Assembly (NCBI GenBank): GCA_041891055.1
Contig: CP169074.1
Coordinates: 1,024,001-1,088,000 of the forward strand
Origin: Halorutilales archaeon Cl-col2-1
GTDB taxonomy: Archaea; Halobacteriota; Halobacteria; Halobacteriales; Afararchaeaceae
Reading direction: 5' to 3'
DNA: 64,000 bases
The notes beneath the pieces were generated by a model. The model was not told the origin of the DNA and ran no database searches. It saw only the letters and a list, made by a program, of their open reading frames with translations. The translations under genes and the position numbers were made by a program. Positions 11,409 to 27,539 of the stretch are shown here, one piece after another. Within the stretch, counting starts at the first letter, position 1. Every line of letters begins with the position of its first letter.

Positions 11409-13232
11409 TCACGCCATAGACTCGACCTGCATCGAATACAGATCTGAGTAGACATCCCCGTTGTCCATAAGCTCGTCGTGGTCTCCGGACTCTATGATCT
11501 CTCCGGATTCGAGAGTATAGATACAGTCAGCGTTGACGACTGTCGACAGACGATGAGCAATAACTAGAATAGCGTAGTCCCGATCCATCGACTCTATGGC
11601 ACGGTGTACCTTACGTTCGAGATCCATGTCGAGGTCACTCGTCGCTTCATCCAGTATTAGAAGATCAGCGTCCTTGAGAAGAGCACGTGCAATAGCCACA
11701 CGCTGCCGTTGACCACCCGAGAGTTTCACGCCTTGGTCACCCAGGACAGTGTCGTATCCGTTCGGGAGTTCGTCCAAAAACTCTGTGACTTGAGCAATCT
11801 CAGATACACGTTCAACGTCGTCATCAGTCGCATCTCTGTTACCGATAGTCACGTTTTTACGCAGCGTGTCGTTGAAGATATGCGGATCTTGTCTCACGAC
11901 GGATACCCTAGAACGCCACTCTGACACGTCAAAGTCGTCTATGGGAGTACCGTTAGCTTTTATCTCGCCTTCATCTGGCTCGTACATCCGGGACAGGAGT
12001 GACATTATAGTCGACTTGCCTGCTCCCGAAGGCCCGACAAAAGCCGCGAAGTCTCCCCTGTCGACCGAGAACGAAAGGTCACGAAGCACGGTTTCGTCAC
12101 TCGAATCGTAACTAAACCAGACGTTCTCGAAAGAAATCTCGTCTACTTCGTCGGGCATTGTCTCTTTAGGTTTATTAGGCTCGCGGCTACGGTCAAGATC
12201 TTCGAGAAACTCCTGTGTACGGACTAGATGTGGGAGTTCGCCCTCGGTTCTATAGAATAGTTTATTGATATTACTAACTCTGGGACCGAGTCGAAACATA
12301 GCAAACAGAAATATACTCAGAGATCCCAGCGATAAAGAAGAGAAGGTGAGTGCAGCGTATATAAGTACGAAGACAGTAACTGCAGTAGTAAGCTGATAGA
12401 AGTTCTGAATAGCGACTTGGTTTCTACGGAGATGGATATTCGAGTCCTCGAACTCCCTTACAGCAGTAGTGAACCCCTCGAAAACCTCATCCATCATATT
12501 GAACAGCTTGACATCACGTATGCCTTGAGTCCCTGCCTGAGCATACTCCTGTATGTCTTCTTTAGCCTGTGCTACTCTGTCTCCTATGGAGTAGCCAGTC
12601 TCAACCTTGCTTCTAAATAGATAAGTAACACCACCAAGAAAGATCCCAGTTACAACTGTTAGACGAGGAGCCAGATAGAAAGCCACACCCAGGTATATCA
12701 TAGCAAGTAAGCTCTGTTCAACTAAATTAATAGTAAACCGGATCACATTGCCCGCATTCTCCGCCTGAGTAACTATAGCATTCAGTATGTCGTCAGAACC
12801 CTCTCTGTCGAAATACGAGACCTTCGCGTTAAGCGCACTCTCGAAGGACTCTGTCTGAAGATGGCGCACGTACTTCGTCCTCAGAGCCGCACGTAGCCAT
12901 CCAACTAAGAAACTCGAAGTGAAACGTACGACCATGACTAGAGAAACCCCTACAACGAGATATCCCATGGTGAACGGTATACCCAGAAAGTCATACACAG
13001 TGAGAAACGCACCTAGAAGACCGTCAGCCTGAGCAGGATCTACACCATCAGACTGAGCGAGTTCGACGATAGGCAGTATAAAGCTGAGACCGAATCCCTC
13101 CAGAAGTGCGGCGAAGACACTCAGTACGAGTACACCACCAGCATACAGAGGTCGAAACTGGGCGACACGGTAAAGAGCCTCTAACTTATCGCGCCAGCCG
13201 ATCTCTGACTGCTCATTATCTACATCTGACAT
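11409..13232 (-). CDS. ABC exporter, fused permease + ATPase (possible lipid-linked glycan flippase)
   Basis: N-terminal TM helices, GPSGAGKS, LSGGQRQR, DEATS, AHRLST. Confidence 0.9.
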   Translation of the reverse strand: MSDVDNEQSEIGWRDKLEALYRVAQFRPLYAGGVLVLSVFAALLEGFGLSFILPIVELAQSDGVDPAQADGLLGAFLTVYDFLGIPFTMGYLVVGVSLVMVVRFTSSFLVGWLRAALRTKYVRHLQTESFESALNAKVSYFDREGSDDILNAIVTQAENAGNVIRFTINLVEQSLLAMIYLGVAFYLAPRLTVVTGIFLGGVTYLFRSKVETGYSIGDRVAQAKEDIQEYAQAGTQGIRDVKLFNMMDEVFEGFTTAVREFEDSNIHLRRNQVAIQNFYQLTTAVTVFVLIYAALTFSSLSLGSLSIFLFAMFRLGPRVSNINKLFYRTEGELPHLVRTQEFLEDLDRSREPNKPKETMPDEVDEISFENVWFSYDSSDETVLRDLSFSVDRGDFAAFVGPSGAGKSTIMSLLSRMYEPDEGEIKANGTPIDDFDVSEWRSRVSVVRQDPHIFNDTLRKNVTIGNRDATDDDVERVSEIAQVTEFLDELPNGYDTVLGDQGVKLSGGQRQRVAIARALLKDADLLILDEATSDLDMDLERKVHRAIESMDRDYAILVIAHRLSTVVNADCIYTLESGEIIESGDHDELMDNGDVYSDLYSMQVESMA

Positions 13233-13677: not shown

Positions 13678-13761
13678 GAAGCGCGGTAATACGAGTCAGA
13701 ATTCAGAAGATGGCCGGATGTTAGGGCATCCGACCGCGCTTCACGCCAGGTGAAGCAAATG
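13678..13761 (+). promoter_or_regulatory. Structured 5' leader (outer stem GAAGCGCGGT/ACCGCGCTTC, inner hairpin CGGATG/CATCCG) ending GGTGAAGCAAATG
   Basis: Perfect 10-bp outer stem, TATA-like TTTAAG about 26 nt upstream; homologous arrangement at 57559-57656. Confidence 0.55.
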
Positions 13762-14169
13762 TACGATACCCACGAGACTCAGAAAAACGTATCGTTATTA
13801 GAGCAACTACTACACGGACTCCGCGTTGGAGTAGGAGAGTCACGTAACGAGTTCGCCGTATGCGATAGCTGTGGCATACGTCTACGTGAAGGCTCAGAGG
13901 TCACTGTATACGCATACTCCAGAGCCGACGACAGTAGCTGGCATACGAGAGGTGTCTACTGCCGTAACTGTGAGAAGACTCAGATAGAGACATCCACTAA
14001 GAACAACGAAGAAGCCGTCGCACAGTCACACATAGCTCTTCTTCAGGATGCCAAGTACCAGACTGCCTCGCTGGTAGTAGTCGACCCCGAAGTACTCGAT
14101 TACAGCAGCGAGAAAGAAGGCGTCGAGTCTCAGACAGTCGCGGTGACCGAGAAAGGAGGGGGTCGCTAA
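13759..14169 (+). CDS. Hypothetical Zn-binding protein (CxxC...CxxC), mobile-element type
   Basis: CDSC and CRNC; ATG at 13759 follows an SD-like GGTGA. Confidence 0.65.
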   Translation: MYDTHETQKNVSLLEQLLHGLRVGVGESRNEFAVCDSCGIRLREGSEVTVYAYSRADDSSWHTRGVYCRNCEKTQIETSTKNNEEAVAQSHIALLQDAKYQTASLVVVDPEVLDYSSEKEGVESQTVAVTEKGGGR

Positions 14170-14269
14170 ACAGCTATGTCTCAGACCACCCAACCGACTT
14201 TAGCCGTGTCAACGGTCTGAGACACTGTTGTCCCCCATTCGGTCTACACAGAAAGCAGAAAGAGACAGA

Positions 14270-15298
14270 ATGTCTACTACGAGACTCGATAAAGACATCC
14301 TAACCCCGAGGATAGATCTGAGTCTCTCCGAGCTAACACGCAGGGAGTTTCACGAGAGATTCTGGAGTCAGAACTTCGGTCTTCTACGAACGGCGGTAAA
14401 GAGGATAGTCGAAGACCTCGGACTCACGACCTGGAGTGAACTGCCGTCGTATATCTGGCGCAACGGAGTCGACGAGATGAACCGCGAGTACGCAGTCGAC
14501 ATGGTAGCCTTCGAGTTCGAGAAAGAGACCTCGGTAGAGAGACTCAAAAACCTCACTCTAGCACTCGGATCAGGTAAGAGGATCAGCCCGGTCGACGAAG
14601 AGCTATACGGCACATACAACACCACCAAAGACGACGTCTTCGCTCCCTTCAAGATCCTCGATATAGCCGGCATACGTCCCAAAGTCGGTATAGACGCCGA
14701 CTCCAGAGCGGTGGGTGGGATCGATACAGAGTTTTTTGATAAACTGAGTGAATATGTCGACTTAGAGATAGAGGTCAGCCTTGGAGACACAGACGAGCCT
14801 ACCCAACTACCGGAGTATGTCCATATAGATTTAGATACAGGGCACTCGAAGAGAGACAAGTACGGATACTGGTATAAAAGACAAGATCTCCACAAAGCCG
14901 TAGAGACCCCAGACAGAGCTCTGAGAGTTCTCAAAGAGATTGCTGGAGACCTACAGACTAAGAGCAACCACACCAAGTACACCTACGACGAACTACAGAA
15001 GATAACTGATCTCGACAGGAGTACTCTGATAACCTATACGAGGCTCTTAGAGGCGAATAGTCTCATAGATAGGTCTCGGGACGAAAGACGTGTAAAAATC
15101 TCTCTGACCGACGTAGGTGTAGCTTTCGTGAGTTTAGTCATGGATGTCGACATAGAGAAGACAGCCAGATTCAGATCCTCTCTTTCAGGTTTCTTCGTAG
15201 AAGATCTTCTCCCGGAGGCAGGATCCAGTAAGACCGATACCAGCAGTAGAAAACAGAGAAAGCCTCCTCCAAAGACAAAGAAAAGTAAGGTAATCTAG
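14270..15298 (+). CDS. Hypothetical protein with C-terminal winged HTH (possible degenerate plasmid/virus replication protein)
   Basis: Long ORF; YTYDELQKITDLDRSTLITYTRLLEANSLIDRSR HTH; basic C-terminal tail. Confidence 0.55.
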   Translation: MSTTRLDKDILTPRIDLSLSELTRREFHERFWSQNFGLLRTAVKRIVEDLGLTTWSELPSYIWRNGVDEMNREYAVDMVAFEFEKETSVERLKNLTLALGSGKRISPVDEELYGTYNTTKDDVFAPFKILDIAGIRPKVGIDADSRAVGGIDTEFFDKLSEYVDLEIEVSLGDTDEPTQLPEYVHIDLDTGHSKRDKYGYWYKRQDLHKAVETPDRALRVLKEIAGDLQTKSNHTKYTYDELQKITDLDRSTLITYTRLLEANSLIDRSRDERRVKISLTDVGVAFVSLVMDVDIEKTARFRSSLSGFFVEDLLPEAGSSKTDTSSRKQRKPPPKTKKSKVI

Positions 15299-15491
15299 CC
15301 TTACACCGACGCCTTACGGCAGTTTGTTAGCTTTCGTCTCGTTAGAGTCATCTCCGAGAAACTCTCGGCTCACTCTCCCACGGAGTCTTCGTCTTCTTGC
15401 GATTTTGGTGAAAGTAACCTAGACCGACCTTTTCTGAGAACAACGTCGAGAACCATACCAAAAATCAATCCTCAGCTCATTCTACGGATCC

Positions 15492-15777
15492 TCTGAGAAG
15501 GTCTTCTATAGAGTCTCTACCTAACTCCATTTGTCTGTTCTCAAGAAAAATCAAAGACATCGTGTACATAATGCCATACGTGGTGCTATTCTCCTCTCCA
15601 CGAGACCTACAGATAGAATTCTATTTCTTCTTTAGATGTCGTTACCCCCGTAGGCAGTCTATACCGTCCAAGGTTTATTCTGTCCAATTAGCTAACCAAC
15701 ATTCTCTAGACAGTTTTCAGATATGTTGGTTAGCTCTTTAGCATGGCCTATACATAACCCATCCGAGGTAGTTTGGA
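15492..15777. repeat. Island repeat copy R1 (full length, includes 46-bp palindrome 15690-15735)
   Basis: Aligns with 21905-22184 (AGACATCGTGTACATAATGCC..., TAGGCAGTCTATACCGTCCAAGGTTT, AGCTAACCAACA...TGTTGGTTAGCT). Confidence 0.9.
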
Positions 15778-15840
15778 CAGATTCTGCAACTAAAACAGAG
15801 AGGAGATCAGTTTGCTCAAGCTCGTCCACAGTCTCCTCGG

Positions 15841-16350
15841 TTAATCGACAAGGTGATTGATAAATTCACGTCCTTCTACGACAGTGATACTTTTTGTTCT
15901 AGAGGTAAGCACGTCTCTGATAGCACGTTCAGCCACTCTATCACTAACAAGTACTGCTACATGATCCGATATGCGGCTGTACTGATACGCTAAGCCAGCA
16001 AGAACCGTGTCAGTTTTTTCGATTTCGTCTTGCGAAACATCGTCAGACGAAATATTAGCCATTCTGTCTCTCGTATCATCCACGACGTTTGAGACGCCTG
16101 AAACACCAAAATCGGTTTCTGCAGAGTCGAGCCACCCGGATTCACTCGCAGCACGTAGACGGTTGCGTTGATACTCGTATTCATCAGGACTCTCTCCTAA
16201 CTCTTCAGCAACTCTTTCGGGCATCTTGACATTGATGTTTTTTCTCTCGAAGTATCTCTCGAAAGCCTGATACTTCTCATTCTCCGGCCCTCCTATCGCA
16301 AAAAGTACGCTACTATCAACTATAACAGTAGATCCAGAGGGTATATTCAT
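15841..16350 (-). CDS. PIN-like protein (putative toxin)
   Basis: VIVDSSVLFA, VAEELG, EKTDTVLAGLA, LVSDR; start overlaps the stop of the upstream HTH gene. Confidence 0.7.
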   Translation of the reverse strand: MNIPSGSTVIVDSSVLFAIGGPENEKYQAFERYFERKNINVKMPERVAEELGESPDEYEYQRNRLRAASESGWLDSAETDFGVSGVSNVVDDTRDRMANISSDDVSQDEIEKTDTVLAGLAYQYSRISDHVAVLVSDRVAERAIRDVLTSRTKSITVVEGREFINHLVD

Positions 16351-16889
16351 CGATTTCGGTGGTCTTGAATAACGTCTTGTAATGCAGTTATCACTGTCAT
16401 AGCTTCTGTGGGATGAACATCGAGTTTTTCAGCGGCAGTACGCTGAGTCAGTTCTTCATCTATAACTCGACGTGTGTAATGTAGAGCAGATGCGAGTTTC
16501 GAGACTCCGTTTCTTTCTACAAAGACTCGTATATCTTCGCTTTCAGACTGTCTCCCAACGGCATCGATAAGTTCCGGTGTAGCTGTAACAGTTCCGTTCG
16601 GGGTTTCGACGTTGATCTCAAGGGTCTCTACCTCCATCTTTGCAGGCTTCTGGTCTTCTTGTCGGGTAAGTATCTGTTTTTCTTCGAGTTCGGATATATA
16701 TTTGTAGGTAGTGGAGTGAGGTAAGCCGAGACCATCCTTTATAGATTCAACTTCGACGGGTTGATTCTTGTATATGTAGGTATACAGGCGTGCAAGCTGT
16801 TGGTTGTTGAGAAGCTCTGAAATGGCGAGGATATTATCGATGGTCTCCTCTGGGTCAGGTTCGTTAGAGGCTGTGTTTTCTACTGACAT
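16347..16889 (-). CDS. HTH DNA-binding protein (putative antitoxin/regulator)
   Basis: LARLYTYI...LGLPHSTTYKYISELEE; C-terminal ELTQRTAAEKLDVHP. Confidence 0.75.
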   Translation of the reverse strand: MSVENTASNEPDPEETIDNILAISELLNNQQLARLYTYIYKNQPVEVESIKDGLGLPHSTTYKYISELEEKQILTRQEDQKPAKMEVETLEINVETPNGTVTATPELIDAVGRQSESEDIRVFVERNGVSKLASALHYTRRVIDEELTQRTAAEKLDVHPTEAMTVITALQDVIQDHRNR

Positions 16890-16908
16890 CTGCTACATAA
16901 TACATGTA

Positions 16909-17097
16909 CTATGTATTAATCTCTTGTGAAAAGAAAAACAGATGCATATTCACTTCTGATCTCCAGTACTCAAAGCAACTATCCCATCCTACTTTATGTA
17001 AATTCTGAGTGATCCGAGACCAGAGGCTCGTGTTAGCTACAGCAATCATGGCATCTGTATCGACTATAACAGGATGTCGCGAACCATCACCTACCAT
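16909..17097 (-). pseudogene. Truncated PIN-like toxin (paralog of 17572-18141)
   Basis: VIVDTDAMIAVANTSLW matches LLIDTDALIAIGNTSLW, but the ORF ends after 62 aa. Confidence 0.75.
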
Positions 17098-17106
17098 TCT
17101 CCAGTC

Positions 17107-17415
17107 TTACTCCTGAAGTACATCGCTAGTATCGAGATCCATGGCTTTCTCAAACTCTTCAGTTTCTCGTTTAATCTCGTCTAGAGCATCACCAAGAAGG
17201 ACTTGTGCAGCCTCTTTCGAGATCTCACCTTGTTCGTACTTTTGATGAATACTGATCTTTTCTTCGTCAGACAGGGTTTCCTGAAGCTTCTCTTGGAGTC
17301 CTTCTCGAGCAAGTTCACTGATATTTATGCCTCCAAGGCGCATCTGATCGAGAAGATGTGATGCTTCTTTTTCAGCCTCCCCCCGAAACTGGATCTTATC
17401 GTTGTTCGTTGCCAT
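17107..17415 (-). CDS. Putative antitoxin (RHH-like N-terminus)
   Basis: KIQFRG...GGINISELAREGL...LSDEEK; paralog of 18142-18453. Confidence 0.7.
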   Translation of the reverse strand: MATNNDKIQFRGEAEKEASHLLDQMRLGGINISELAREGLQEKLQETLSDEEKISIHQKYEQGEISKEAAQVLLGDALDEIKRETEEFEKAMDLDTSDVLQE

Positions 17416-17497
17416 CCTACTCAGATATTCACTCGCCTCCAATATATGTGTTGTGACCAGTAATCCATGTCATGACAAATGGTTCTTCTGAAAGTAC

Positions 17498-17559
17498 TCT
17501 ATCTCTTCTCTAGATGTCGTTACCACCGTAGGCAGTCTATACCGTTCAAGATGTCTAAC
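17498..17559. repeat. Island repeat copy R2 (partial)
   Basis: TCTATCTCTTCTCTAGATGTCGTTACCACCGTAGGCAGTCTATACCGTTCAAG, followed by GTCTAAC. Confidence 0.85.
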
Positions 17560-17571
17560 CTAGAAGATACA

Positions 17572-18141
17572 TCAAGCAAAATACTCAGAGTCGACAAAAC
17601 CGGAGCAATCGACGGGTATACCTTCCCATACAACTATGATGGACTTGTATCCGGTCCAACCCTCACTTTCGACCATCTCCTGTGTAGCCTCACAGAACTC
17701 TTTCTTACTAATTATACCGTTGTCGTATAGAATATATATCGGAAAAGCAGGTGACGAAATACTGACTTCGTAGCCTTCTCTGTGTGCAGTATTCTCTATA
17801 CGCTCTCTACCAGCTTGATCCCGTATGAAAACTGCGTCGAAGTGACTCCCGTTCTGAGCTATCTGTATTCGTATCGACTCCTCTCCTGCGTCCTCGCCGC
17901 TCGGTTTCGGCACGGTGTTGACTAGATCTATACTCCCCTCCTCAATCCCGGATAATGCGTGGAGACTAGCTTCATAGATATGGTCGTCTCTATCACTCTT
18001 CTCGGTGTGGTTCTGTAGCTCTGACTTACACGTGTAGGTGGTAGTCAGTCCAACTTTAGTAAATGTCTTCTCCCACAGACTCGTGTTACCTATAGCGATC
18101 AAAGCATCAGTATCGATCAGAAGTCGAGAACAGTCCATCAT
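17572..18141 (-). CDS. PIN-like protein (putative toxin)
   Basis: LIDTDALIA, KSELQ, EDAGEESI, IRDQAGR acidic PIN pattern. Confidence 0.7.
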   Translation of the reverse strand: MMDCSRLLIDTDALIAIGNTSLWEKTFTKVGLTTTYTCKSELQNHTEKSDRDDHIYEASLHALSGIEEGSIDLVNTVPKPSGEDAGEESIRIQIAQNGSHFDAVFIRDQAGRERIENTAHREGYEVSISSPAFPIYILYDNGIISKKEFCEATQEMVESEGWTGYKSIIVVWEGIPVDCSGFVDSEYFA

Positions 18142-18453
18142 TTACTCGGCAAGATACTTCTCGGTACCTTCATCTGCTAACTCTCTTGTGTTCTCTATCG
18201 TCTTCTGTATCTGATCGAAGTCTTCTCCAAGCGCTATTCGGACAACCTTCTCAGATACATCGCCTCTCCTATACATCTCGTAGAACTCAATTTTCTCCTC
18301 GTCGGAGAGTATATCGGGTAAGAGACGTCTCATCGCTTCTCTGCTTACTTCACTTTCGTTAACTCCTCCGACACGTATCTCATCCAGCTTCTCTAACAAC
18401 TTCTTGATAGCGTCCGACCGAAACTTAACCGTATCAGTATCTGACTGACCCAT
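18142..18453 (-). CDS. Putative antitoxin (RHH-like)
   Basis: TVKFRS...GGVNESEVSREAMRRL...LSDEEK; abuts the PIN gene. Confidence 0.7.
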   Translation of the reverse strand: MGQSDTDTVKFRSDAIKKLLEKLDEIRVGGVNESEVSREAMRRLLPDILSDEEKIEFYEMYRRGDVSEKVVRIALGEDFDQIQKTIENTRELADEGTEKYLAE

Positions 18454-18589
18454 ACTCTGATTACCAGTGTCTTAGAGAAAAAGTTTGTGTCACAGGTAAC
18501 ATTGTAGCCACAGAAAGAGACCTACTGATTTTTAGGTGCGAATAAAGGTCATAGGGAGAGTCTGCCCACTTCTCTCGGCAATACTAACT

Positions 18590-18643
18590 CCGTAGGCAGT
18601 CTATACCGTCCAAGGTTTGTTCTGTCCTATTATAGCTAAAACA
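18590..18643. repeat. Island repeat copy R3 (partial; ends in left arm of palindrome)
   Basis: CCGTAGGCAGTCTATACCGTCCAAGGTTTGTTCTGTCC...TAGCTAAAACA. Confidence 0.85.
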
Positions 18644-18916
18644 TACTATTCGTGAGCTTAGGCACACGTTCTCTAAGCTCATCAAGGCAGAGCTCTAAGA
18701 CAGCCATCGGGTTGGGATCGCTAAACGATGCTGCCTCTCTGTGAGAGGAGTCCCAGTCTCTGTGATCGACCTGAAAATGACTCGACCCTAGATCCTCGTG
18801 GCTTTGGTCTTGATGCCAGCCACAAGACCAGTCAGATCCTCGTTGGTTGTACTGTATGCGAAACTCGTCTCTGTCCTCTCGTGGTCTCCACTCTATTTCG
18901 AGTTGTGCTTCTACTC

Positions 18917-19110
18917 GTAAACTACTCCACCCTACTTCGCTCGGGCAAACCCTCGCTCGTGGAGGGATGGGGCTTTGACGTGGACTTCCGTTCTATGGCT
19001 ATGTAACCAACGGAGAGGCCTGTCTCCCCGGTCGAAGGGGCGTCAGTACTTACACGTTCACGGTCATCGTCCCGCCATTTAGCGCAACGTTTACGGGTGC
19101 GCCTCCGCCG
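18917..19110 (-). ncRNA. Predicted omega/reRNA scaffold of TnpB (5' boundary approximate)
   Basis: Hairpin-rich right end overlapping the tnpB 3' end, the established position for IS200/605 reRNA. Confidence 0.55.
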
Positions 19111-20285
19111 CCCCCAGTCTGGTTGCGACGGAGTAGCCGCCGACAACACCGCACCGCCACGTTCTTTGCTGCGTTGTAGTCGGCGTGATTCTCGTAGCCA
19201 CACTTCTGGCACTCGAACTGTTCTTGCGTGGGGCGGTTGTCTTCGTGGGTGAATCCACAACTGCTACACCGCTGTGAGGTGTAGTAGGCTGACACCGTCT
19301 TAGCCTGTGGACTCCGCTCCAACTCCTCAACATCGATTCCGTAGGCCTTCGCTTTGTACTCGACGTAGTTATACAGGCGGTTAAACCGCCAGCGGTGGTG
19401 CCACGTTGCCCCCTGCGCCCGTTTCCGGATGTCGGTCAAGTCCTCGAAGGCGATCACCGAACAGTCGTATTCGACCGCTTCGTCGACAATTTCGTTGGCA
19501 ACGATATGGAGATACTGCTTGTAGTACGCACGTTCTTTTTCTCCGACATGTTGTAGAGTGCGGTGGGCTTCCTGTGTACCACGTTCTTGAAGTGATCTAC
19601 GTCGCTTCTCGAACTCACGGTGCCAGTGGTCGAGTTCGTCGCCCGTCCAGAACGTGCCGGTTGATGCGACAGCAAGGTTCTCGACGCCGAGGTCGATCCC
19701 GAGGACTGTGTTGTGCTCGGGGACATCAGCGTCAGTTTCTGTGTCGTCTTCAGTGCGTTTGAAGCCGATGTGGAGCCAGAACTTGTCTTCGAACGGCTTG
19801 TAGTGGAGTGTGCTGGTGCGGAACTCCCAGTCGTCGTTTTCGAGGTATTCTTCGAAAGGAGTGTCTGCTGTGTCGTTTGGGAGTACGTAGTCTGCTTCGA
19901 TACGTCCATCCACGGTGGACAGCGAGATATGGTCATCATGGAAGGTAGCGGCTCGTTTGTCGAAACGAGCCGTGTCAGCGGTAAACTCGGGTTGGCTGGT
20001 TTTTTCGTTCTTTTCGAGACGTTCGACACCAGCTTTGACGGCTTCAACGGCTTGGAAGATAGCTTGCTGGACGAGGTTCGCCGTGAGGTCGTACTCTGAT
20101 TTCAGGTCGTGGTAGAGCTCGTCTTTTACGGCATACTTCGCTGTTTTCTTGTAGTCGTCTTCGTCCCAGCAGTGGTCGCTAGTTTCGTTAGCGCAATGTT
20201 TGTACTGGTCGATAGTGTCGAGAAGTGCGTCCTTGTCGTTGTCGTCCACGACGAGTTTAACCGGTAGCGTCCGACGCACTTCCAT
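19050..20285 (-). CDS. tnpB: RNA-guided endonuclease TnpB
   Basis: RuvC GIDLG / AFEDL / HADYNAA; Zn finger CSSC...CQKC. Confidence 0.95.
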   Translation of the reverse strand: MEVRRTLPVKLVVDDNDKDALLDTIDQYKHCANETSDHCWDEDDYKKTAKYAVKDELYHDLKSEYDLTANLVQQAIFQAVEAVKAGVERLEKNEKTSQPEFTADTARFDKRAATFHDDHISLSTVDGRIEADYVLPNDTADTPFEEYLENDDWEFRTSTLHYKPFEDKFWLHIGFKRTEDDTETDADVPEHNTVLGIDLGVENLAVASTGTFWTGDELDHWHREFEKRRRSLQERGTQEAHRTLQHVGEKERAYYKQYLHIVANEIVDEAVEYDCSVIAFEDLTDIRKRAQGATWHHRWRFNRLYNYVEYKAKAYGIDVEELERSPQAKTVSAYYTSQRCSSCGFTHEDNRPTQEQFECQKCGYENHADYNAAKNVAVRCCRRLLRRNQTGGGGGAPVNVALNGGTMTVNV

Positions 20286-20676
20286 ACTGGTTTCAACGTA
20301 TTCTATCTATTTAAATTCTTTAGGAGTGGGGGAGTTAACCGAGTACAGAGAACAGATATCGAGGAGGTATTTGACGCGCTCCTCCCCTCCCTACTGTGCT
20401 GCTTGAGAGCCTGGGCTCTCTGCGCTGCTCGTTGAGGAAGGGGGCTCCGCGCTATCTTGTGCTGAAGACTCCTTTGAGTATGGCTCGGAGAAAAAGACCC
20501 CCCTTATCGAGAGTAGCTTTAACCCGAATAGGTCTCATAGGGCTGGGCTCTGCTTCGACGTTTTTGATCCCTTCGGTTCTTTCAAGACGGTTTCGAAACC
20601 GTTTGTGAATCTCGTACCTACTGAGATGAGAGCTTGCTTCGACAGGAGAGGTCATAGAACTCTTGGCACCAGTATT

Positions 20677-21183
20677 TCAGACAGAGACTTTCTCGTCTTT
20701 TGTCTTTTCTACAGAAGTATACATGCTGACAGCATGTTTTATCATCTCGGCTCGTTGGCGGTAATACTCCCAGTCCTCCGCGAGTCTTCTTCGTTCTCTT
20801 GCTTCTTCACCGGAGAGGTCTTGGTCACCTATAGAAGCTCGGAGTTCGTCGGGAGAAGAAACTCCATAACTGTCTCGCCATTCATCTATGTCTTCTCGGA
20901 TCGAGACAAGCTCATCAGTTAGCTCTTGTTTACTGTATTCTTCTATCAGTTCACGGACTTGATCAAAGTACTGAGTGACAGGATCAGGTCGATATAGAGT
21001 CTCACGTCCATTCTGTATCTCCGAGATCTTGTTTAGTTCGACTATATGCTGTAGATACTTCTCAGCAGTATTTCGTGCTACACCTGCCATTTCAGCTATC
21101 TCTCCTGCATTGCGGGGTTCACGAACTGTCATAGCCACCTCCTCTATCCTCTCAAACTTATCCTCGTGGTCAGCCTGGGTCAT
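20677..21183 (-). CDS. Winged-helix protein (putative antitoxin/regulator)
   Basis: REPRNAGEIAEMAGVARNTAEKYLQHIVE...TLYRPDP; common haloarchaeal family. Confidence 0.8.
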   Translation of the reverse strand: MTQADHEDKFERIEEVAMTVREPRNAGEIAEMAGVARNTAEKYLQHIVELNKISEIQNGRETLYRPDPVTQYFDQVRELIEEYSKQELTDELVSIREDIDEWRDSYGVSSPDELRASIGDQDLSGEEARERRRLAEDWEYYRQRAEMIKHAVSMYTSVEKTKDEKVSV

Positions 21184-21201
21184 ATACTCACTACGTAGCC
21201 C

Positions 21202-21327
21202 TTATTTTAATATCTTACTACAGGATTCATTATGCTGATCTTGTGCACGTTGAGTATCATATCCATTGGATCGAAGAGCGTTAACCACTGCACCTGGGAC
21301 GTGTTCGTCAACTACGATGTCGAACAT
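21202..21327 (-). pseudogene. Truncated DUF5615/Mut7-C-type PIN toxin
   Basis: MFDIVVDEHVPGAVVNALRSNGYDTQRAQDQ, then a stop at 41 aa; directly downstream of DUF433. Confidence 0.75.
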
Positions 21328-21603
21328 CTACTTTTCAGCTTTTTCAGGGGCATTTGACATCTTGATCAGCTCCTCCTCTAGCTCTCTGTGTCTCTCACGT
21401 ATCTTCTCCATCTCATCAGGATGTCGGTAGTAATACGCTAGGGCTTCGTGTACTTCATCGAGTCCTAACTCGAGCTGATCGGCTACATATTCTGGGGACT
21501 CACCGTTTTTAATAACCATATCAGCTATCTGTATCACCGAGACACGTCTACCCTCAAGACGTGGCTCACCTCCGAGTGTGTCTTCAGTCTTTACAACTGT
21601 CAT
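21328..21603 (-). CDS. DUF433 family antitoxin
   Basis: TLGGEPRLEGRRVSVIQI...LDEVHEALAYYYRHPDE. Confidence 0.88.
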   Translation of the reverse strand: MTVVKTEDTLGGEPRLEGRRVSVIQIADMVIKNGESPEYVADQLELGLDEVHEALAYYYRHPDEMEKIRERHRELEEELIKMSNAPEKAEK

Positions 21604-21824
21604 TCTACCACCATCCACACGAGAGAGTTACCGACTAGCTTGCTCTTCACACGTCCGTCTTCTTCGATCTTTCGAAGACGATAGTCGGCGTTTTGACGTG
21701 AGCATCCCACAGTATCTCCTATCTCTTTCGTAGATGCAGGCTCATTCTCACGTATAGCATCTATAAACTCATTGTCGGCAAATGACGGTTCAAATTCACC
21801 GGTCGAAGATCTTTGTCGCCCCAT
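21600..21824 (-). CDS. Small winged-helix protein
   Basis: PASTKEIGDTVGCSRQNADYRLRKIEEDGRVKSKLVG. Confidence 0.8.
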   Translation of the reverse strand: MGRQRSSTGEFEPSFADNEFIDAIRENEPASTKEIGDTVGCSRQNADYRLRKIEEDGRVKSKLVGNSLVWMVVE

Positions 21825-21904
21825 TATACCACTAATAGATCATCCATCCACTTAATCATTATCTCCATAGCAAAAGATACCAGCAAGATAAAGCTAAGAA
21901 CAAT

Positions 21905-22184
21905 TCTGAGAAAGTCTTGTCTAGAGTCTCTACCCAACTCTATTTCTTCATCCTCAAGAAACTCGCAGACATCGTGTACATAATGCCGTACGTGGTGCTA
22001 TTCTTCTCTCCACGAGAGTTACAGATAGAATTCTATCTCTTCTCTAGGATAGGCAGTCTATACCGTCCAAGGTTTGTTCTGTCCCATTAGCTAACCAACA
22101 TTCTCTAGAGAATTTTCGAAAGTGTTGGTTAGCTCCCCGAACACACTCTATACAAACCAATTTGTGCATCCGAGATAGTTTGGA
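21905..22184. repeat. Island repeat copy R4 (near full length, includes 46-bp palindrome 22089-22134)
   Basis: Direct repeat of 15492-15777. Confidence 0.9.
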
Positions 22185-22331
22185 TATCTCTTATACTCCA
22201 AAGTAGGTGGTGAATTAGGTCAGGTGACCCAGTTCACTAGTGAGAACATGATTCATACCTCCATGTGTCACATATAAATAGAAGTCACTTTATTAATAAA
22301 CTATTTAAGTAATAGTAACGTTAAGCGTAAT

Positions 22332-23033
22332 ATGAAACGTGGTGTGAAAGAAGAACATGATAAAAGCGGTATATCGATCTCTCTCCCGGTGCCTTCTCTC
22401 GACTCTGATCTGTTCAAACACAAAGCTACTAATAACGTACTTCTATTTCTATCACATCACAGACAGGACGAGTTTACTATATCTGAGATAGCTTCTCAGA
22501 CAGGGCATACTCAGCCATCAGTAAAGAGATCGGTAGACGTTCTAGAGAAAAACGATCTAGTCATAGATAATCCTCAGGGCAACAGACGTCTGATACGAAT
22601 AAACCGTGAACGGCTTTCTGTGCCAGATGATCCCTATCTTCAGATACCTCAGATACAGTTTCAGAAACCCGTAAAAGAAGCTGTCGAACAACTGAAGAAA
22701 GGTCTCAAAGATGTTGAAGCTGTAGTCCTATATGGGAGTGTAGCTCGGGGAGAAGCAGATAGCCGGAGTGACATCGACCTATGGATCCTCGTTACTGAAG
22801 ACAGAGCTAAAAACCAAAGAAAAGCTAACAAAATAAAATTAGACCTCGAAGAAAAAAGATTTGACGGCGATAGGTATAGCTATGACATCGATGTCGAGTC
22901 TATTTCTGCTATACCTAGATACACAGAAGACCTACGACAGATAGTCGTCTCCGGGATCCCAGTCTATCAGACAGAGAAGTTCAAAACTGTCGAAAAGATC
23001 CTAATGGAGGATCTGGAGGGAGAAGATGACTGA
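22332..23033 (+). CDS. HTH + minimal nucleotidyltransferase (MNT) antitoxin
   Basis: N-terminal HTH; VVLYGSVARGEADSRSDIDL. Confidence 0.88.
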   Translation: MKRGVKEEHDKSGISISLPVPSLDSDLFKHKATNNVLLFLSHHRQDEFTISEIASQTGHTQPSVKRSVDVLEKNDLVIDNPQGNRRLIRINRERLSVPDDPYLQIPQIQFQKPVKEAVEQLKKGLKDVEAVVLYGSVARGEADSRSDIDLWILVTEDRAKNQRKANKIKLDLEEKRFDGDRYSYDIDVESISAIPRYTEDLRQIVVSGIPVYQTEKFKTVEKILMEDLEGEDD

Positions 23034-23225
23034 TCCCAGCTCTATCGTGGATGCTATCGGCCGTGCAGAAGACGCATTCGAAGAGAGAGCCGGAGGAGTG
23101 CCAAAGTACGAAGAAGGTATTGCCTCGGGCGGGGGCTGGGAGACACAGATGAGTTAGCTGAAGAAGTCCATAGCTTCGTCGTCGATCAGATCAGAGAAGG
23201 TGGTGTATGTATCTGTAGTTTGTGA
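23026..23225 (+). pseudogene. Internally deleted HEPN-type partner of the MNT
   Basis: MTDPSSIVDAIGRAEDAFEE...GWETQ is joined out of frame to ELAEEVHSFVVDQIREGGVCICSL*; the central part appears missing. Confidence 0.6.
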
Positions 23226-23271
23226 TGGTATCGGATACAATACAAAAGCCATTCTCCGAGAGTCTGATCAT

Positions 23272-23317
23272 AGCTAACCAACATTCTCTAGAGGATTTTC
23301 GAAAATGTTGGTTAACT
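23272..23317. repeat. Island repeat copy R5: 46-bp palindrome only
   Basis: AGCTAACCAACATTCTCTAGAGGATTTTCGAAAATGTTGGTTAACT. Confidence 0.88.
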
Positions 23318-23342
23318 ATTTCTTGAGCTTTCTTGCCTCGGA

Positions 23343-23750
23343 CTACGCCGTAACAGGTATATCGACGCTAATACTGTCGTACCAGACTGTGGGCTTCTTT
23401 CTCCTGCCTTCTTCTTCAAGCTCTATTAACCCGAGTTTCTCTAGCTCGGTAACACTATCATGTACTTGGCGTACGTCTCGATCTACTCGACGTGCGAGGT
23501 CACGTATACTCTCGACGTTTTCTCGGGCTATGGTTCGTATGAGTTCTAGATTTCTGTCGTCGAAAATCTCGTTAACTCGCTCTTCTGTCTCGAGTGTCAG
23601 ACCGTAGCTCTCTTCGGGCTCTTCGCCCTCATCGATTGCTTTCATAGCCTCGGCGACGGGGTCTTGGTGTCGAGTCGCGCTAACTCCGGCTACTTTGACG
23701 TGTAAGACTTTCTTTCCGTCGGGGTTCTTGGTGTCGGCTTCTATCGCCAT
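23343..23750 (-). CDS. HVO_A0114-like DNA-binding protein (putative antitoxin)
   Basis: NLELIRTIARENVESIRDLARRVDRDVRQVHDSVTELEKLGLI...KKPTVWYD. Confidence 0.85.
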   Translation of the reverse strand: MAIEADTKNPDGKKVLHVKVAGVSATRHQDPVAEAMKAIDEGEEPEESYGLTLETEERVNEIFDDRNLELIRTIARENVESIRDLARRVDRDVRQVHDSVTELEKLGLIELEEEGRRKKPTVWYDSISVDIPVTA

Positions 23751-24038
23751 AATGTATCAACTCCTTCGTTTTTCTTGACGTATTCTCTGAAACGTTCGTA
23801 TGCCTCGAAGTACTCGATATCGACATCCACCGGATTTTCTTCACCTTCGTGCTTCTCGAAGACTCCATGGCTGTTATCGTATCGAAGCAGTGTTTCACCG
23901 TTCTGAGTCCCGTAGTGTAACCGTATTTTTGTATCCGTCAGGATACTTTTCGGATTCGGGCACTTCAAGTATCACGGCACGAACTACCGTATCTTCGAAC
24001 TCCCGGGTCTCATCAACGACGCGTTCGATATCCGACAT
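23741..24038 (-). pseudogene. Frameshifted DUF6516/TumE-like toxin
   Basis: MSDIERVVDETREFEDTVVRAVILEVPESEKYPDGYK, then a +1 shift in an A5 run near 23926-23930 to IRLHYGTQNGETLLRYDNSHG. Confidence 0.75.
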
Positions 24039-24237
24039 CTACTACATTGTTGTTAAATCCTACAACAATAAAACGTTGTGGGGTCTTAACAACAGTCCTC
24101 CATTCTCATCTCTGAAAAACGTAGCTGGGAGAGTAACTCGTATGTTCAGCATTCGAGAAACTGGTTCGAGTCTCGGGATTGACGACGCATTACCACAAAA
24201 CTACGATAGCTGATAGTCAGGGTTCAGTCACTCCTCA

Positions 24238-24804
24238 CTAATTATCGAGATACTCCTGCCGTAGATGCTCGATGTACTGCGGATCCCAAGATTTAGTTTC
24301 GACGTAGTAGGTAAGCGCAGAGTCAACATACTCCGCGGGCAGAATCTCGTGTGTCGCTAACGCACAGAGTAGATGCGGTGTTGTAAACAGTGTGTTTCGG
24401 TCGTCGAGTGCGAGGTTAACGAAGAGATAGTTGGTACTGTTGAACTCATCTGTGACAAAAAGATCTGCCTCTAACTCGTTTGCCAGCCAGATGCTCTCAG
24501 ACTCTCCACGATCGAGACCGTAGTCGAGATCCACGTCGTTGAAGTCGTCGGTATCGTGTGTCGTCAGATGGTGGGATGCCTGGAGCACGAGGTCAGCGGC
24601 TGCGGACAATAGGTCGTCGTTCTCCGTCGCTTCGGCGACCTCGCCCAAGACAGCCGCAGGTATATGGATATCGTATACGTTGAGGAGAGCCTTGAGTGGA
24701 TCAGCACCCGAAGGAGACCGCGAACGCCCGTCAACGACAGGTGTAGCGACGTTTAACAGAACATTTGTGTCGACAACAGCAATCGCCTTCTCCGGCATCG
24801 TCAT
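24238..24804 (-). CDS. PIN-like protein (putative toxin)
   Basis: VVDTNVLLN, VLGEV, LDRGESESI, FVTDEF. Confidence 0.8.
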   Translation of the reverse strand: MTMPEKAIAVVDTNVLLNVATPVVDGRSRSPSGADPLKALLNVYDIHIPAAVLGEVAEATENDDLLSAAADLVLQASHHLTTHDTDDFNDVDLDYGLDRGESESIWLANELEADLFVTDEFNSTNYLFVNLALDDRNTLFTTPHLLCALATHEILPAEYVDSALTYYVETKSWDPQYIEHLRQEYLDN

Positions 24805-25184
24805 CTCTGTGATCCACTGTCCGACTCAGACTGCGTCCACTCTGGGACATCGCCGTCATAGAAGGCATCGTCAGTCGGGAGACTGTCCTCAAGCCGGGGT
24901 TCAGGAGGAGCCCTGTCGATCGACTCACGGAGGAGTTTCATCCGGAGTGCTTCTTCACGTCCGAGTATCTCTTCGACTGTGTCATACTCGACACGGTCGT
25001 TATAGTATGCGTCGCTGAGACGTCGGCGAAACTCCTTGTCATCTGCGAGCTCTTCGAGTTCGTCTTCTAGTGCATCGATAAGGAGACGGGTGCGGGATAT
25101 ATCGAGGACTTCAACGACGCTGTCGGCACGCTCAACTAGAGATTTCGGGGCATTAAAATCGACACGGGTTTTCTCCTCAGCCAT
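24801..25184 (-). CDS. RHH-like putative antitoxin
   Basis: KTRVDFNAPKSLVERAD...SRTRLLIDALEDEL; overlaps the PIN start. Confidence 0.75.
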   Translation of the reverse strand: MAEEKTRVDFNAPKSLVERADSVVEVLDISRTRLLIDALEDELEELADDKEFRRRLSDAYYNDRVEYDTVEEILGREEALRMKLLRESIDRAPPEPRLEDSLPTDDAFYDGDVPEWTQSESDSGSQR

Positions 25185-25446
25185 CAGTTCATGTGTAGAC
25201 CCTACACATACTTAAACCTCTCGCCAGTATAGACCGACCTGACATCCTCCCACGACTGAAGACACGGTGGAGTTGGATCTATGTATTCGACATACATTGG
25301 GTATTCGACACTCTAATAGCAAGAATACAAGAAAGAACGGAGTTCTATGGAGAGTAAGCCCTCAGAGCCGACTCCAGAGCGTAGGTAGAGACCTAGCTAA
25401 CACTCCTCACACGGTACTTTATCCGTCGTCGGAACGTAGTAGTCTT

Positions 25447-26861: not shown

Positions 26862-26901
26862 GCCAAAGACTGATACGTCGAAAATGCATACATGTACATA
26901 C

Positions 26902-27153
26902 ATGGGAACCAAGACAATCTCCCTCTCGGACGACGCTTACGAGAAGCTAAAAGCAGAGAAAAAGGAAGGTGAAAGCTTCAGCGACGTTGTTAGACGATTG
27001 ACATCTAAAAACATCAGTCTCAGGGACTTTCACGGTATTTTGTCAGAGGGGAGTGCGGAAGAAATAAGAGAGGTAGTTCAAAAAAGAAGACAAGATAGGC
27101 AGGAAATTAGGGAGCAAAGACGTGAGAATTTAGTAGAAAGACTCGGAAAATGA
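26902..27153 (+). CDS. vapB: VapB-family antitoxin
   Basis: MGTKTISLSDDAYEKLKAEKKEGESFSDVVRRL. Confidence 0.9.
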   Translation: MGTKTISLSDDAYEKLKAEKKEGESFSDVVRRLTSKNISLRDFHGILSEGSAEEIREVVQKRRQDRQEIREQRRENLVERLGK

Positions 27154-27539
27154 TACTTGACACAACATTTCTCATCGATGTCCTCGACGGGAAAGAAGAA
27201 GCCAGGGAGGCTGAGGAGGTACTCGATAAGAGAGGATCAGCACACGTCACACCGGTATCGGTGATGGAGCTTCTGGAGGGTGCATATCTCTCTGACACGA
27301 CGGACGAAGAGATAGAGGCAGTCAGGACACTTCTCGAAGGACTGAATCATTACAGCTTCGACACCGAAGACGGCATAGCCGCTGGAAAGATTAGTGCTGA
27401 TCTGATACAGAAAGGTGAAAGAGTAGGAATTGAGGACACGATGATAGGAGCCGTTGCACTCAACGAGAACGAGAAAGTCCTCACACGTAATGTCTCGGAT
27501 TTCGAGAGAATAGAAGGCGTCGAGGTCGAGAGTTACTAA
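27150..27539 (+). CDS. vapC: VapC PIN ribonuclease toxin
   Basis: MILDTTFLID...DTMIGAVA...LTRNVSDFERI. Confidence 0.92.
   Translation: MILDTTFLIDVLDGKEEAREAEEVLDKRGSAHVTPVSVMELLEGAYLSDTTDEEIEAVRTLLEGLNHYSFDTEDGIAAGKISADLIQKGERVGIEDTMIGAVALNENEKVLTRNVSDFERIEGVEVESY

Follow-up and report, generated by a model that had tools for sequence, protein, structure and literature searches.

A palindrome family at module borders on haloarchaeal plasmids and islands: a candidate recognition site for a DNA-binding protein of the mobilome

Introduction

Halorutilales archaeon Cl-col2-1 carries an array of small toxin–antitoxin (TA)-like gene pairs with copies of a palindrome-bearing repeat between some of them, and the question raised by this locus is what the palindrome does there. 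The stretch of DNA analyzed here, the window, is 64,000 nucleotides long and corresponds to C1:1024001–1088000 of a haloarchaeal genome of 2.06 Mb in four contigs, with a completeness of 99.5%; positions without a contig name are those of the window. A first-pass annotation, made from the letters of the window, took the array for an integron-like series of cassettes separated by attC-like sites. As far as it describes small, self-contained modules with a repeat between them, that account is borne out. The array lies inside a low-GC island (window 1–27000, GC 0.40–0.53 versus about 0.58 elsewhere) and is made of small, mostly minus-strand, TA-like pairs, with three palindromes and five repeat copies between modules. 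Inspection by eye shows the modules as gene pairs, each with an upstream region of its own. The integron reading itself fails, since the genome has no integron integrase, the palindromes have bulge-free stems, and the window has no recombinase. Instead, the palindrome is the local form of a very widespread family on haloarchaeal plasmids and islands, apparently undescribed so far. We tentatively favor the interpretation that a DNA-binding protein of the mobilome recognizes the palindrome, which would act as the operator of that protein’s own gene, with extra copies at the borders of modules.

The repeat and its palindromes in the window

The repeats reported by the first-pass annotation are real. 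Three of the copies contain the palindrome, as described, the five copies share one orientation, and the coordinates of the fourth and fifth copies, R4 and R5, agree to within 1 nt. The palindrome has the form AGCTAACCAACA-N22-TGTTGGTTARCT and is found at 15690–15735, 22089–22134, and 23272–23317. No further copy with up to two mismatches is present in the 64-kb window, and 100 dinucleotide shuffles gave no matches. On the minus strand, the repeat family has two full copies, R1 (15492–15777) and R4 (21905–22184), and two short repeat-core copies, R2 (17498–17559) and R3 (18590–18643); the copy at 23272–23317 consists of the palindrome only. R1 reads, on the minus strand, as the palindrome, then the block CTTGGACGGTATAGACTGCCTACGG, then about 180 nt. 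The block is the portion retained in every repeat copy that has it. R4 is a full copy without the 342-aa gene that adjoins R1.

All three palindromes of the window fold with continuous stems of 11–13 bp and no bulges. Palindrome 1, with 12-bp arms and a 22-nt spacer, forms a DNA hairpin of −12.9 kcal/mol with an unbroken stem. Palindrome 3, whose right arm is TGTTGGTTAACT, lies between two gene 3′ ends; its left edge is directly adjoined by an ATG of the minus strand. R2 retains an arm remnant only, GGTTAGAC. In R3, the downstream arm is decayed (TGTT--TTAGCT) and includes the stop codon of a gene split by an insertion sequence (IS). The short R2 and R3 look like decayed copies rather than clean crossover products. 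The arms contain stop codons in several frames (AGC-TAA, T-TAG-CT). It follows that open reading frames (ORFs) ending within an arm, as at R3 and at several copies on contig C2, are expected and functionally uninformative. Examined as a structured RNA, the repeat showed zero compensatory pairs and a z of −1.3, and an Rfam scan of the window gave zero matches. The long repeat also contains another, perfect palindrome of 16 bp, AGATAGAATTCTATCT, roughly 100 nt away from the 46-bp one (15585–15600 in R1, 22012–22027 in R4); it may be a second protein site.

The palindrome core across haloarchaeal genomes

The 46-bp palindrome is a local form of the core TAACCAAC-N20-26-GTTGGTTA, and members of the family are 40–46 bp long. 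The palindrome is not local. At up to two mismatches per arm, the genome has 30 copies, of which 10 are on C1, 19 on C2 (a 116-kb contig with 49.6% GC), and 1 on C3 (10 kb). One further site was found with the 8-nt core; exact core copies number 25, and the reversed core has none. Of 401 Halobacteriales genomes searched, 223 have the core, at up to 38 copies each. The 4,340 strand matches in these 401 genomes correspond to about 2,170 core sites, and the reversed-core control gave zero in all but 3 of the genomes. The exact 11-nt arms, GCTAACCAACA, are more restricted, being found in 25 of the 401 genomes, including 14 of the 18 of one genus, again with a reversed control of zero. In a scan of species genomes, 51 of the 53 matching stretches were haloarchaeal; the hosts are Haloarcula plasmids, Halorientalis, Halorhabdus, Halonotius, and a Natronocalculus plasmid. 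Among viral contigs, three stretches have the exact arms, and at least 119 have the 16-base core, which is roughly the chance level for a collection of that size. No paper on a haloarchaeal motif of this kind or on DUF6788 was found in a search of the main texts of papers outside subscription journals.

What is conserved in the family is the arms and their separation. Within the genus of Cl-col2-1, the spacers are near-uniform (TCTAGAG plus an AT-rich TTTCGAAAA); between genera, they are unrelated in sequence, and their length is kept. Of 113 distinct foreign sites, 96 have a gap of 23–24 nt between the two 8-nt cores, as do 20 of the 25 own sites. The half-site centers are therefore 31–32 bp apart, that is, three helical turns. 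Mismatches in the arms of the own copies are not compensatory.

A partner gene downstream of the palindrome

One small gene is the fixed partner of the palindrome, a copy of which lies directly upstream of it. In Cl-col2-1, genes for a 115-aa acidic DUF6788-like protein start 1 nt past a palindrome at C2:32–376, at C2:33740–34081, and, in a frameshifted copy, at C1:260–603; a stump is also present. In Haloarcula and relatives, a 120-aa homologue begins 2 nt past the palindrome at eight loci. The own and Haloarcula proteins are homologous and have in common the C-terminal motif K.T.T.K.I.G..YYY.QWREG....S.Y..PV. Twenty loci of more distant family members were inspected by eye: 17 have both the TAACCAAC and GTTGGTTA arms 1–20 nt upstream of the start codon, one has variant arms, and two retain one arm. 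In Haloferax volcanii, the ATG of the pHV4 gene HVO_RS02980 is preceded by the palindrome at a distance of 17 nt. Plasmid pHV1 of the same species has one core copy only, and the DUF6788-like gene there has the variant arms TAACCT/AGGTTA; pHV1 is thus a poor model, and pHV4 a better one.

The DUF6788-like gene is found in 239 of the 401 genomes and on 205 PLSDB plasmids, where it is always annotated as ‘hypothetical protein’. A hand tally of the first hundred genomes (G001–G100) found both gene and palindrome in 39, the gene only in 11 (10 of them weak matches), the palindrome only in 7, and neither in 43. The palindrome is placed as the multi-site operator or centromere of a plasmid DNA-binding protein would be, with a site upstream of the protein’s own gene and many sites on the same replicons. 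In the gene-linked copies, the upstream half of the spacer is the AT-richer one in 14 of 16 (0.73 versus 0.46), an asymmetry that would fit a TATA box lying within the palindrome, with a leader that is short or missing.

The label DUF6788 (PF20586) comes from precomputed matches and Atlas clusters, with scores of 0.93–0.94. Longer proteins fuse the DUF6788-like module to DUF6884, and DUF6884 is related to the DNA-binding protein YaaA according to the part of PMC11701544 that deals with it. A profile search of the partner protein against the sequences of the Protein Data Bank gave chance-level matches only, with no solved relative among them. Both C1 and C2 open with the DUF6788-like gene and a palindrome (C1:1–650, where the gene is frameshifted, and C2:1–423). 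These contig starts may mark an assembly break at a repeat, or C2-like DNA joined to the chromosome in part of the population.

Where the copies lie

The own copies are all intergenic by crude ORF calls and often lie 0–25 nt from a start or stop codon. Elsewhere, 66 of the 68 foreign sites that could be classified fall between genes, compared with a genic background of 50%, by gene calls on the fetched loci based on GC at third codon positions. The recurrent neighbors are plasmid orc1/cdc6 genes, parA operons, and TA pairs; overall, the neighborhood is mixed. The palindrome stands at the 3′ end of two own and three foreign orc1/cdc6 genes, and most copies are away from orc genes. A Halorientalis locus is much like the window, with the order TumE/HVO_A0114, palindrome, DUF7387/HicA, palindrome. 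One locus has three sites inside 250 bp. On replicon G151:C3, locus L071 has groups of two to three tandem palindromes 87–123 nt apart (5828–6081 and 13014–13180), the group being repeated on the same replicon in an iteron- or centromere-like arrangement.

On C2, the palindromes cluster in regions of small genes. The stretch C2:59000–95000, 36 kb, is free of palindromes and holds large defense-type genes, for GmrSD, an SNF2 helicase, DUF499/DUF7680, a 1,896-aa helicase-nuclease, and a DNA methylase.

Other regularities were sought around the copies and given up. A direction rule for TCTAGAG-type spacers gave no signal (of 31 sites, 15 have a co-oriented gene start downstream and 16 a convergent stop). 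Spacer flipping between paralogous loci did not survive alignment. A flank travelling with the palindrome was seen in four families only, with crude ORF calls that were wrong for the known gene, and was dropped. The largest flank family has a conserved flank without a shared protein.

Variation of modules and seams of the mosaic

The genome has three copies of a unit made up of the 342-aa gene, the repeat, and the palindrome. Window 14301–15735 matches C1:562967–564402 at 88% and C2:92627–94029 at 86%, and the homology to the C1 segment stops at the last base of palindrome 1, its right edge. Beyond this unit, an orphan pair made of a 139-aa Cys-rich ORF and the 342-aa ORF is likewise present threefold, at window 13736–15735, C1:560128–564402, and C2:89880–94029. 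Since one copy of the pair is on C2 and the other two are in low-GC islands of the chromosome, these islands hold plasmid-derived segments. The second island, C1:530–570 kb, contains sugar-nucleotide genes and five palindromes.

At 95 distinct palindrome loci, 73 ends of high-scoring segment pairs (HSPs) fall within 15 nt of the palindrome, and 80 HSPs cross it, many of these being overlaps of the same locus. Where the partner could be judged, the palindrome and its spacer travel with the 5′ end of the downstream gene. On C2, a 91-nt flank to the right of one palindrome is found inverted to the left of another (C2:34082–34228 and C2:109661–109807), and the asymmetric spacers of the two have the same orientation. 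Duplicating the flank and the palindrome together would not by itself give this arrangement.

Relatives differ in module content, as a cassette-like array would lead one to expect. In a genome of the same genus, G001, modules of the window are found at 89–99% identity on separate contigs. In metagenomes (two runs of one study), four modules have a depth of 0–6 versus 100–350 elsewhere, and the assembled X1/X3 contigs are without modules 15841–16889, 17572–18453, and 24238–25184. The joints fall at repeat ends, 17547 being joined to 21235, with another joint at 15790. The latter, the left breakpoint of the wHTH-DUF7437 module (wHTH, winged helix-turn-helix), recurs in two records, and a low-depth metagenome contig of another study joins 17558 to 15790. 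In this respect the first-pass interpretation is upheld; against it, G001 contig C35 has the same 755-bp TumE/HVO_A0114 module (23341–24095) beside a tRNA gene, without a palindrome. Homology between replicons often ends exactly at palindrome edges; the metagenome breaks lie at repeat ends, 12–55 nt from the actual or would-be palindrome position. From the homology ends and the metagenome joints together, the seams lie at or near repeats, without one fixed arm position.

A proposal for the palindrome and its alternatives

We propose that the palindrome is an ancient haloarchaeal mobilome cis-element made of two inverted half-sites, TAACCAACA and TGTTGGTTA, with centers 31–32 bp apart, which a sequence-specific DNA-binding protein would recognize as duplex DNA. 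The likeliest candidate for the binder is the small acidic DUF6788-like protein. The copy over the promoter region of its gene would serve as an autoregulatory operator, with the AT-rich, TATA-like half of the spacer upstream and the start codon 1–20 nt past the palindrome. The many further copies, intergenic on the same plasmids and on plasmid-derived islands, border small modules (TA pairs, orc1/cdc6, parA operons), and may connect these modules with the same protein, whether for regulation, for partition, or for insulation. The same 40–46 bp stand at every module border, so exchange between replicons tends to break at palindromes, and breaks at these shared sites would yield the cassette-like mosaic of the window. 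The element, its spread, its tie to the gene, its preference for intergenic DNA, and the breaks at its edges are observations; that a protein binds, which one it is, and what the extra copies do are deductions from them.

Several observations weigh against this proposal. The sites show no preference for promoter-type spacers, divergent, tandem, and convergent positions numbering 13, 38, and 15 versus background fractions of 0.21, 0.54, and 0.25, and 7 of the 31 own sites lie between two gene 3′ ends. ORFs of at least 50 aa start 0–8 nt past the palindrome on 15 of 190 sides, versus 9–20 of 190 in shifted controls, and the DUF6788-like gene makes up 8 of these 15. Abutting starts are therefore not enriched overall, and a general promoter role is unsupported. 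As the genomes are related and both features are plasmid-borne, the hand tally overstates independence, and the co-occurrence of gene and palindrome may come from shared plasmids only. Neither hmmscan nor a genome search gave a DUF6788 match for the partner protein. Finally, the uniform spacers within a genus look like intragenomic spread, which a pure operator model leaves unexplained.

In favor of the integron reading are a TA-like cassette array with a repeated palindrome between some cassettes and arm ends that resemble RYYYAAC/GTTRRRY with one mismatch each. A true integron, or a cluster of attC sites lacking an integrase (CALIN), recombined by IntI, is nevertheless hardly credible. The integron-integrase model TIGR02249 has a best score of 24.8 bits in the whole genome, against a cut-off of 265. 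The three copies have a perfect stem, without the R″/L″ and L′/R′ boxes, the unpaired spacer between them, or the extrahelical bases of an attC fold, and the site is 46 bp long. Whereas an integron cassette is a single ORF, mostly promoterless, with its site at the 3′ end, here the palindrome co-travels with the start of its best-defined partner gene, the DUF6788-like gene. Archaeal integrons are described with a canonical IntI and attC in the part of PMC9668308 that bears on them, and the term ‘Halobacter’ is absent from the main text of that paper.

There are 11 generic tyrosine recombinases in the genome and none in the window, and none is encoded by the 222 ORFs scanned within about 1.5 kb of palindromes in other genomes. 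These results also bear on the possibility of a dedicated, non-integron exchange system in which palindromes are cut and rejoined at or beside the arms, so that modules are excised, inserted, or inverted between sites. The gene for the enzyme would lie elsewhere and encode either a DUF6788-like protein with a DUF6884 partner or fusion or one of the small, roughly 200-aa tyrosine recombinases. We regard this as possible though rather unlikely. It would account for the replicon homology that ends exactly at palindrome edges, for the cdc6 homology between loci L037 and L074 that begins 5–6 nt past unrelated palindromes, and for the natural variation of module content. Sites bracket single genes or pairs at a spacing of 0.7–2 kb (both C2 orc1/cdc6 genes, the MNT nucleotidyltransferase module of the window, the L052 pair), and the uniformity of spacers within a genus recalls the attC sites of sedentary integrons. 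Two small tyrosine recombinase genes of about 200 aa, on C2 and C3, are separated from palindromes by 53 and 122 nt, and the inverted flank on C2 stands on opposite sides of same-oriented spacers (C2:34082 and C2:109761). A DUF6884 gene and three integrase genes lie within 7 kb of the palindrome at C1:1326770; they belong to a probable integrated element at C1:1323176–1334263. On the other side, apart from the missing recombinases in the window and among the 222 ORFs, the genome has no serine recombinase, and Haloarcula spacers differ widely between sites that would need to recombine. The whole palindrome, spacer included, follows one flank, and no hybrid sites were seen. The TumE module was relocated without a palindrome, the metagenome breaks fall at repeat ends away from the palindrome, and the partial copies are decayed rather than recombinant. 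The more specific version, in which a DUF6788-like targeting protein, with or without a fused or partnered YaaA-like DUF6884 domain for DNA processing, recognizes the TAACCAACA-N-TGTTGGTTA palindrome and brings about cutting and joining at its edges as an undescribed Halobacteriales module-exchange system, seems to us more doubtful still. If true, plasmid and island arrays of TA, orc1/cdc6, par, and defense genes would be assembled in an integron-like manner with unrelated proteins and sites.

A selfish element copying itself into intergenic plasmid and island DNA, like a REP/REPIN (repetitive extragenic palindrome and its hairpin doublet) or a miniature inverted-repeat transposable element (MITE), would explain the high copy number, the strong intergenic bias, the lack of preference in orientation and spacer type, and the near-identical 46-bp units with unrelated flanks in one genome; the G001 assembly breaks at copies. 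The copy before the DUF6788-like gene would then mark the mobilizing protein, as REPs flank the genes of REP-associated tyrosine transposases (RAYTs). We consider this unlikely. Around the 30 own copies, no target-site duplications or common flanking bases are seen by eye, and the sole Y1 transposase of the genome (PF01797, C1:979038) has no arm match or palindrome nearby. Invariant arms with spacers that are free between genera fit a binding site better than a copied element, and, from family to family, the distance from the palindrome to the gene downstream stays within 20 nt. An element acting in RNA, with the transcribed 12-bp stem as a 3′-end, processing, or translational-control hairpin, is improbable in our view. 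The hairpins are stable (−9 to −13 kcal/mol, z −4.8 to −8.8), many copies lie 0–25 nt from stop codons, and the loop is free in length and sequence. Against this stand a stem that is invariant in sequence, without covariation across five families, a loop length held to three helical turns of duplex, and the empty Rfam scan.

Gene modules of the array

The modules are given here in order along the window. The orphan gene beside R1, on the plus strand at 14270–15298, encodes 342 aa (356 aa from a TTG at 14228) with a C-terminal wHTH-like stretch read by eye; it had no family match in profile searches and no match among PLSDB plasmids. On the minus strand, the module at 15841–16889 pairs a wHTH-DUF7437 protein (16347–16889, by profile search) with a 169-aa partner (15841–16350) that is PIN-like by motif only. 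The next minus-strand module, 16909–17442, has an antitoxin-like protein (17107–17442) and a 62-aa stump (16909–17097) of a paralogue of the gene at 17572–18141, to which repeat D10 (17020–17063 versus 18073–18116, 82%) ties it. The latter gene encodes the 189-aa partner in the minus-strand module at 17572–18453, beside an antitoxin-like protein (18142–18453) that is a paralogue of the one at 17107–17442 (35% identity, E 4e-22).

A TnpB-only element of the IS200/IS605 type follows at 18912–20466 on the minus strand, with tnpB at 19050–20285 (PF07282 and PF01385). Its assignment is based on OrfB_IS605 and Cas12f1-like TNB domains and on repeated ends, and its boundaries were set from many full or partial copies in G001. 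It splits a gene of about 154 aa, the parts of which are 20655–20467 and 18911–18645, and the end of the gene runs into the decayed arm of R3. This gene forms one module with the minus-strand wHTH protein of family DUF7342 at 20677–21183 (E 1.2e-46), which has a paralogue at C2:112063–112605. The minus-strand module at 21328–21824 contains a small wHTH protein (21600–21824) and a DUF433 protein (21328–21618), both by profile search, and is 99% identical to G001 contig C105. On the plus strand, 22332–23158 holds a wHTH-nucleotidyltransferase (22332–23033, Polbeta/NTP_transf_2), with a weak MntA_antitoxin match (36.6 bits versus a cut-off of 60), and a 42-codon ORF (23030–23158), a candidate HEPN protein.

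The minus-strand module at 23343–23968 has an HVO_A0114 wHTH protein (23343–23750) and a short TumE-like protein (23741–23968), again from profile search. Several small deletions at 23917–23926 set this TumE-like gene apart from its counterparts in the X1/X3 metagenome contigs and in G001, and the copy of the window (75 aa) may be damaged. The last minus-strand module, 24238–25184, has a 127-aa antitoxin-like protein (24801–25184) and a 188-aa partner (24238–24804), with weak PADLOC PDC-S70 matches.

In this series, the TA modules named at first pass are recovered in part: TumE/HVO_A0114, the wHTH-nucleotidyltransferase, DUF433, wHTH-DUF7437, DUF7342, and the two antitoxin paralogues stand, and the PIN labels found no support in profile searches. 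The three ‘PIN’ proteins (15841–16350, 17572–18141, 24238–24804) matched no PIN model and have no detectable likeness to one another; the sole hint of PIN in them is an N-terminal hhhD(S/T) motif read by eye, and one of the three has weak PADLOC PDC-S70 matches. A canonical VapB/PIN pair with good Pfam scores, unlike those proteins, lies just outside the array, at the island edge (26884–27539, plus strand).

Comparison with known systems and significance

The closest parallels to the proposed role are KorB-OB of IncP plasmids and ParB-parS, whose 13–16 bp contiguous palindromes are the sites of a global plasmid regulator or centromere. There, as here, one palindrome is repeated around the replicon, with a copy at the binder’s own promoter and others at or far from promoters, and the sites accompany modules for replication, partition, and stability. 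The haloarchaeal element differs in the three helical turns and the free spacer between its half-sites and in having copies in chromosomal islands as well. Moreover, the candidate binder (DUF6788-like, about 115 aa, acidic) is unrelated to ParB, and its binding is a prediction.

With integrons, whose attC sites are 57–141 bp long, the array shares small, often TA-type modules separated by a family of imperfect palindromes, sites that are uniform within a lineage, and content that varies between strains. It differs in lacking IntI, bulged bases, and R/L boxes, in modules that have their own promoters, and in a site on the 5′ side of the partner gene. The pdif modules of Acinetobacter plasmids, with 28-bp XerC/XerD sites and a 6-bp spacer, resemble the array as discrete modules, many of them TA pairs, bounded by short inverted-arm plasmid sites without an adjacent dedicated recombinase. 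In the palindrome, however, 20–23 bp separate arms of 11–12 bp, and no Xer link was found; a Xer/dif-type module, with 11-bp arms around a 6–8 bp center, was thus set aside. REP/REPIN elements with RAYTs likewise are high-copy intergenic palindromes with copies beside one particular gene; the palindrome has no Y1-transposase link, its arms are conserved across families, and its spacers vary. A MITE in the strict sense was rejected, as terminal inverted repeats flanked by target-site duplications are not what the 30 copies show. Haloarchaeal origin recognition boxes (ORBs) have a G-string at the ORB end and stand inverted around an AT-rich stretch beside orc1/cdc6, as set out in the portion of PMC3528665 concerned with them. 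ORB replication-origin repeats were also discarded, the arms having no G run and most copies lying away from orc genes.

With about 2,170 copies in over half of the haloarchaeal genomes searched, and with a small unknown gene headed by one of the copies, the palindrome points to a common and unstudied piece of plasmid biology, and the seams of mosaic plasmids fall at its sites. Genetically tractable species have the element too, as at HVO_RS02980 on pHV4 of Haloferax volcanii, so binding, regulation, and recombination are directly testable. On most haloarchaeal secondary replicons, a protein that binds these sites would reach modules for replication (orc1/cdc6), partition (parA), and stability (TA) as well as accessory ones.

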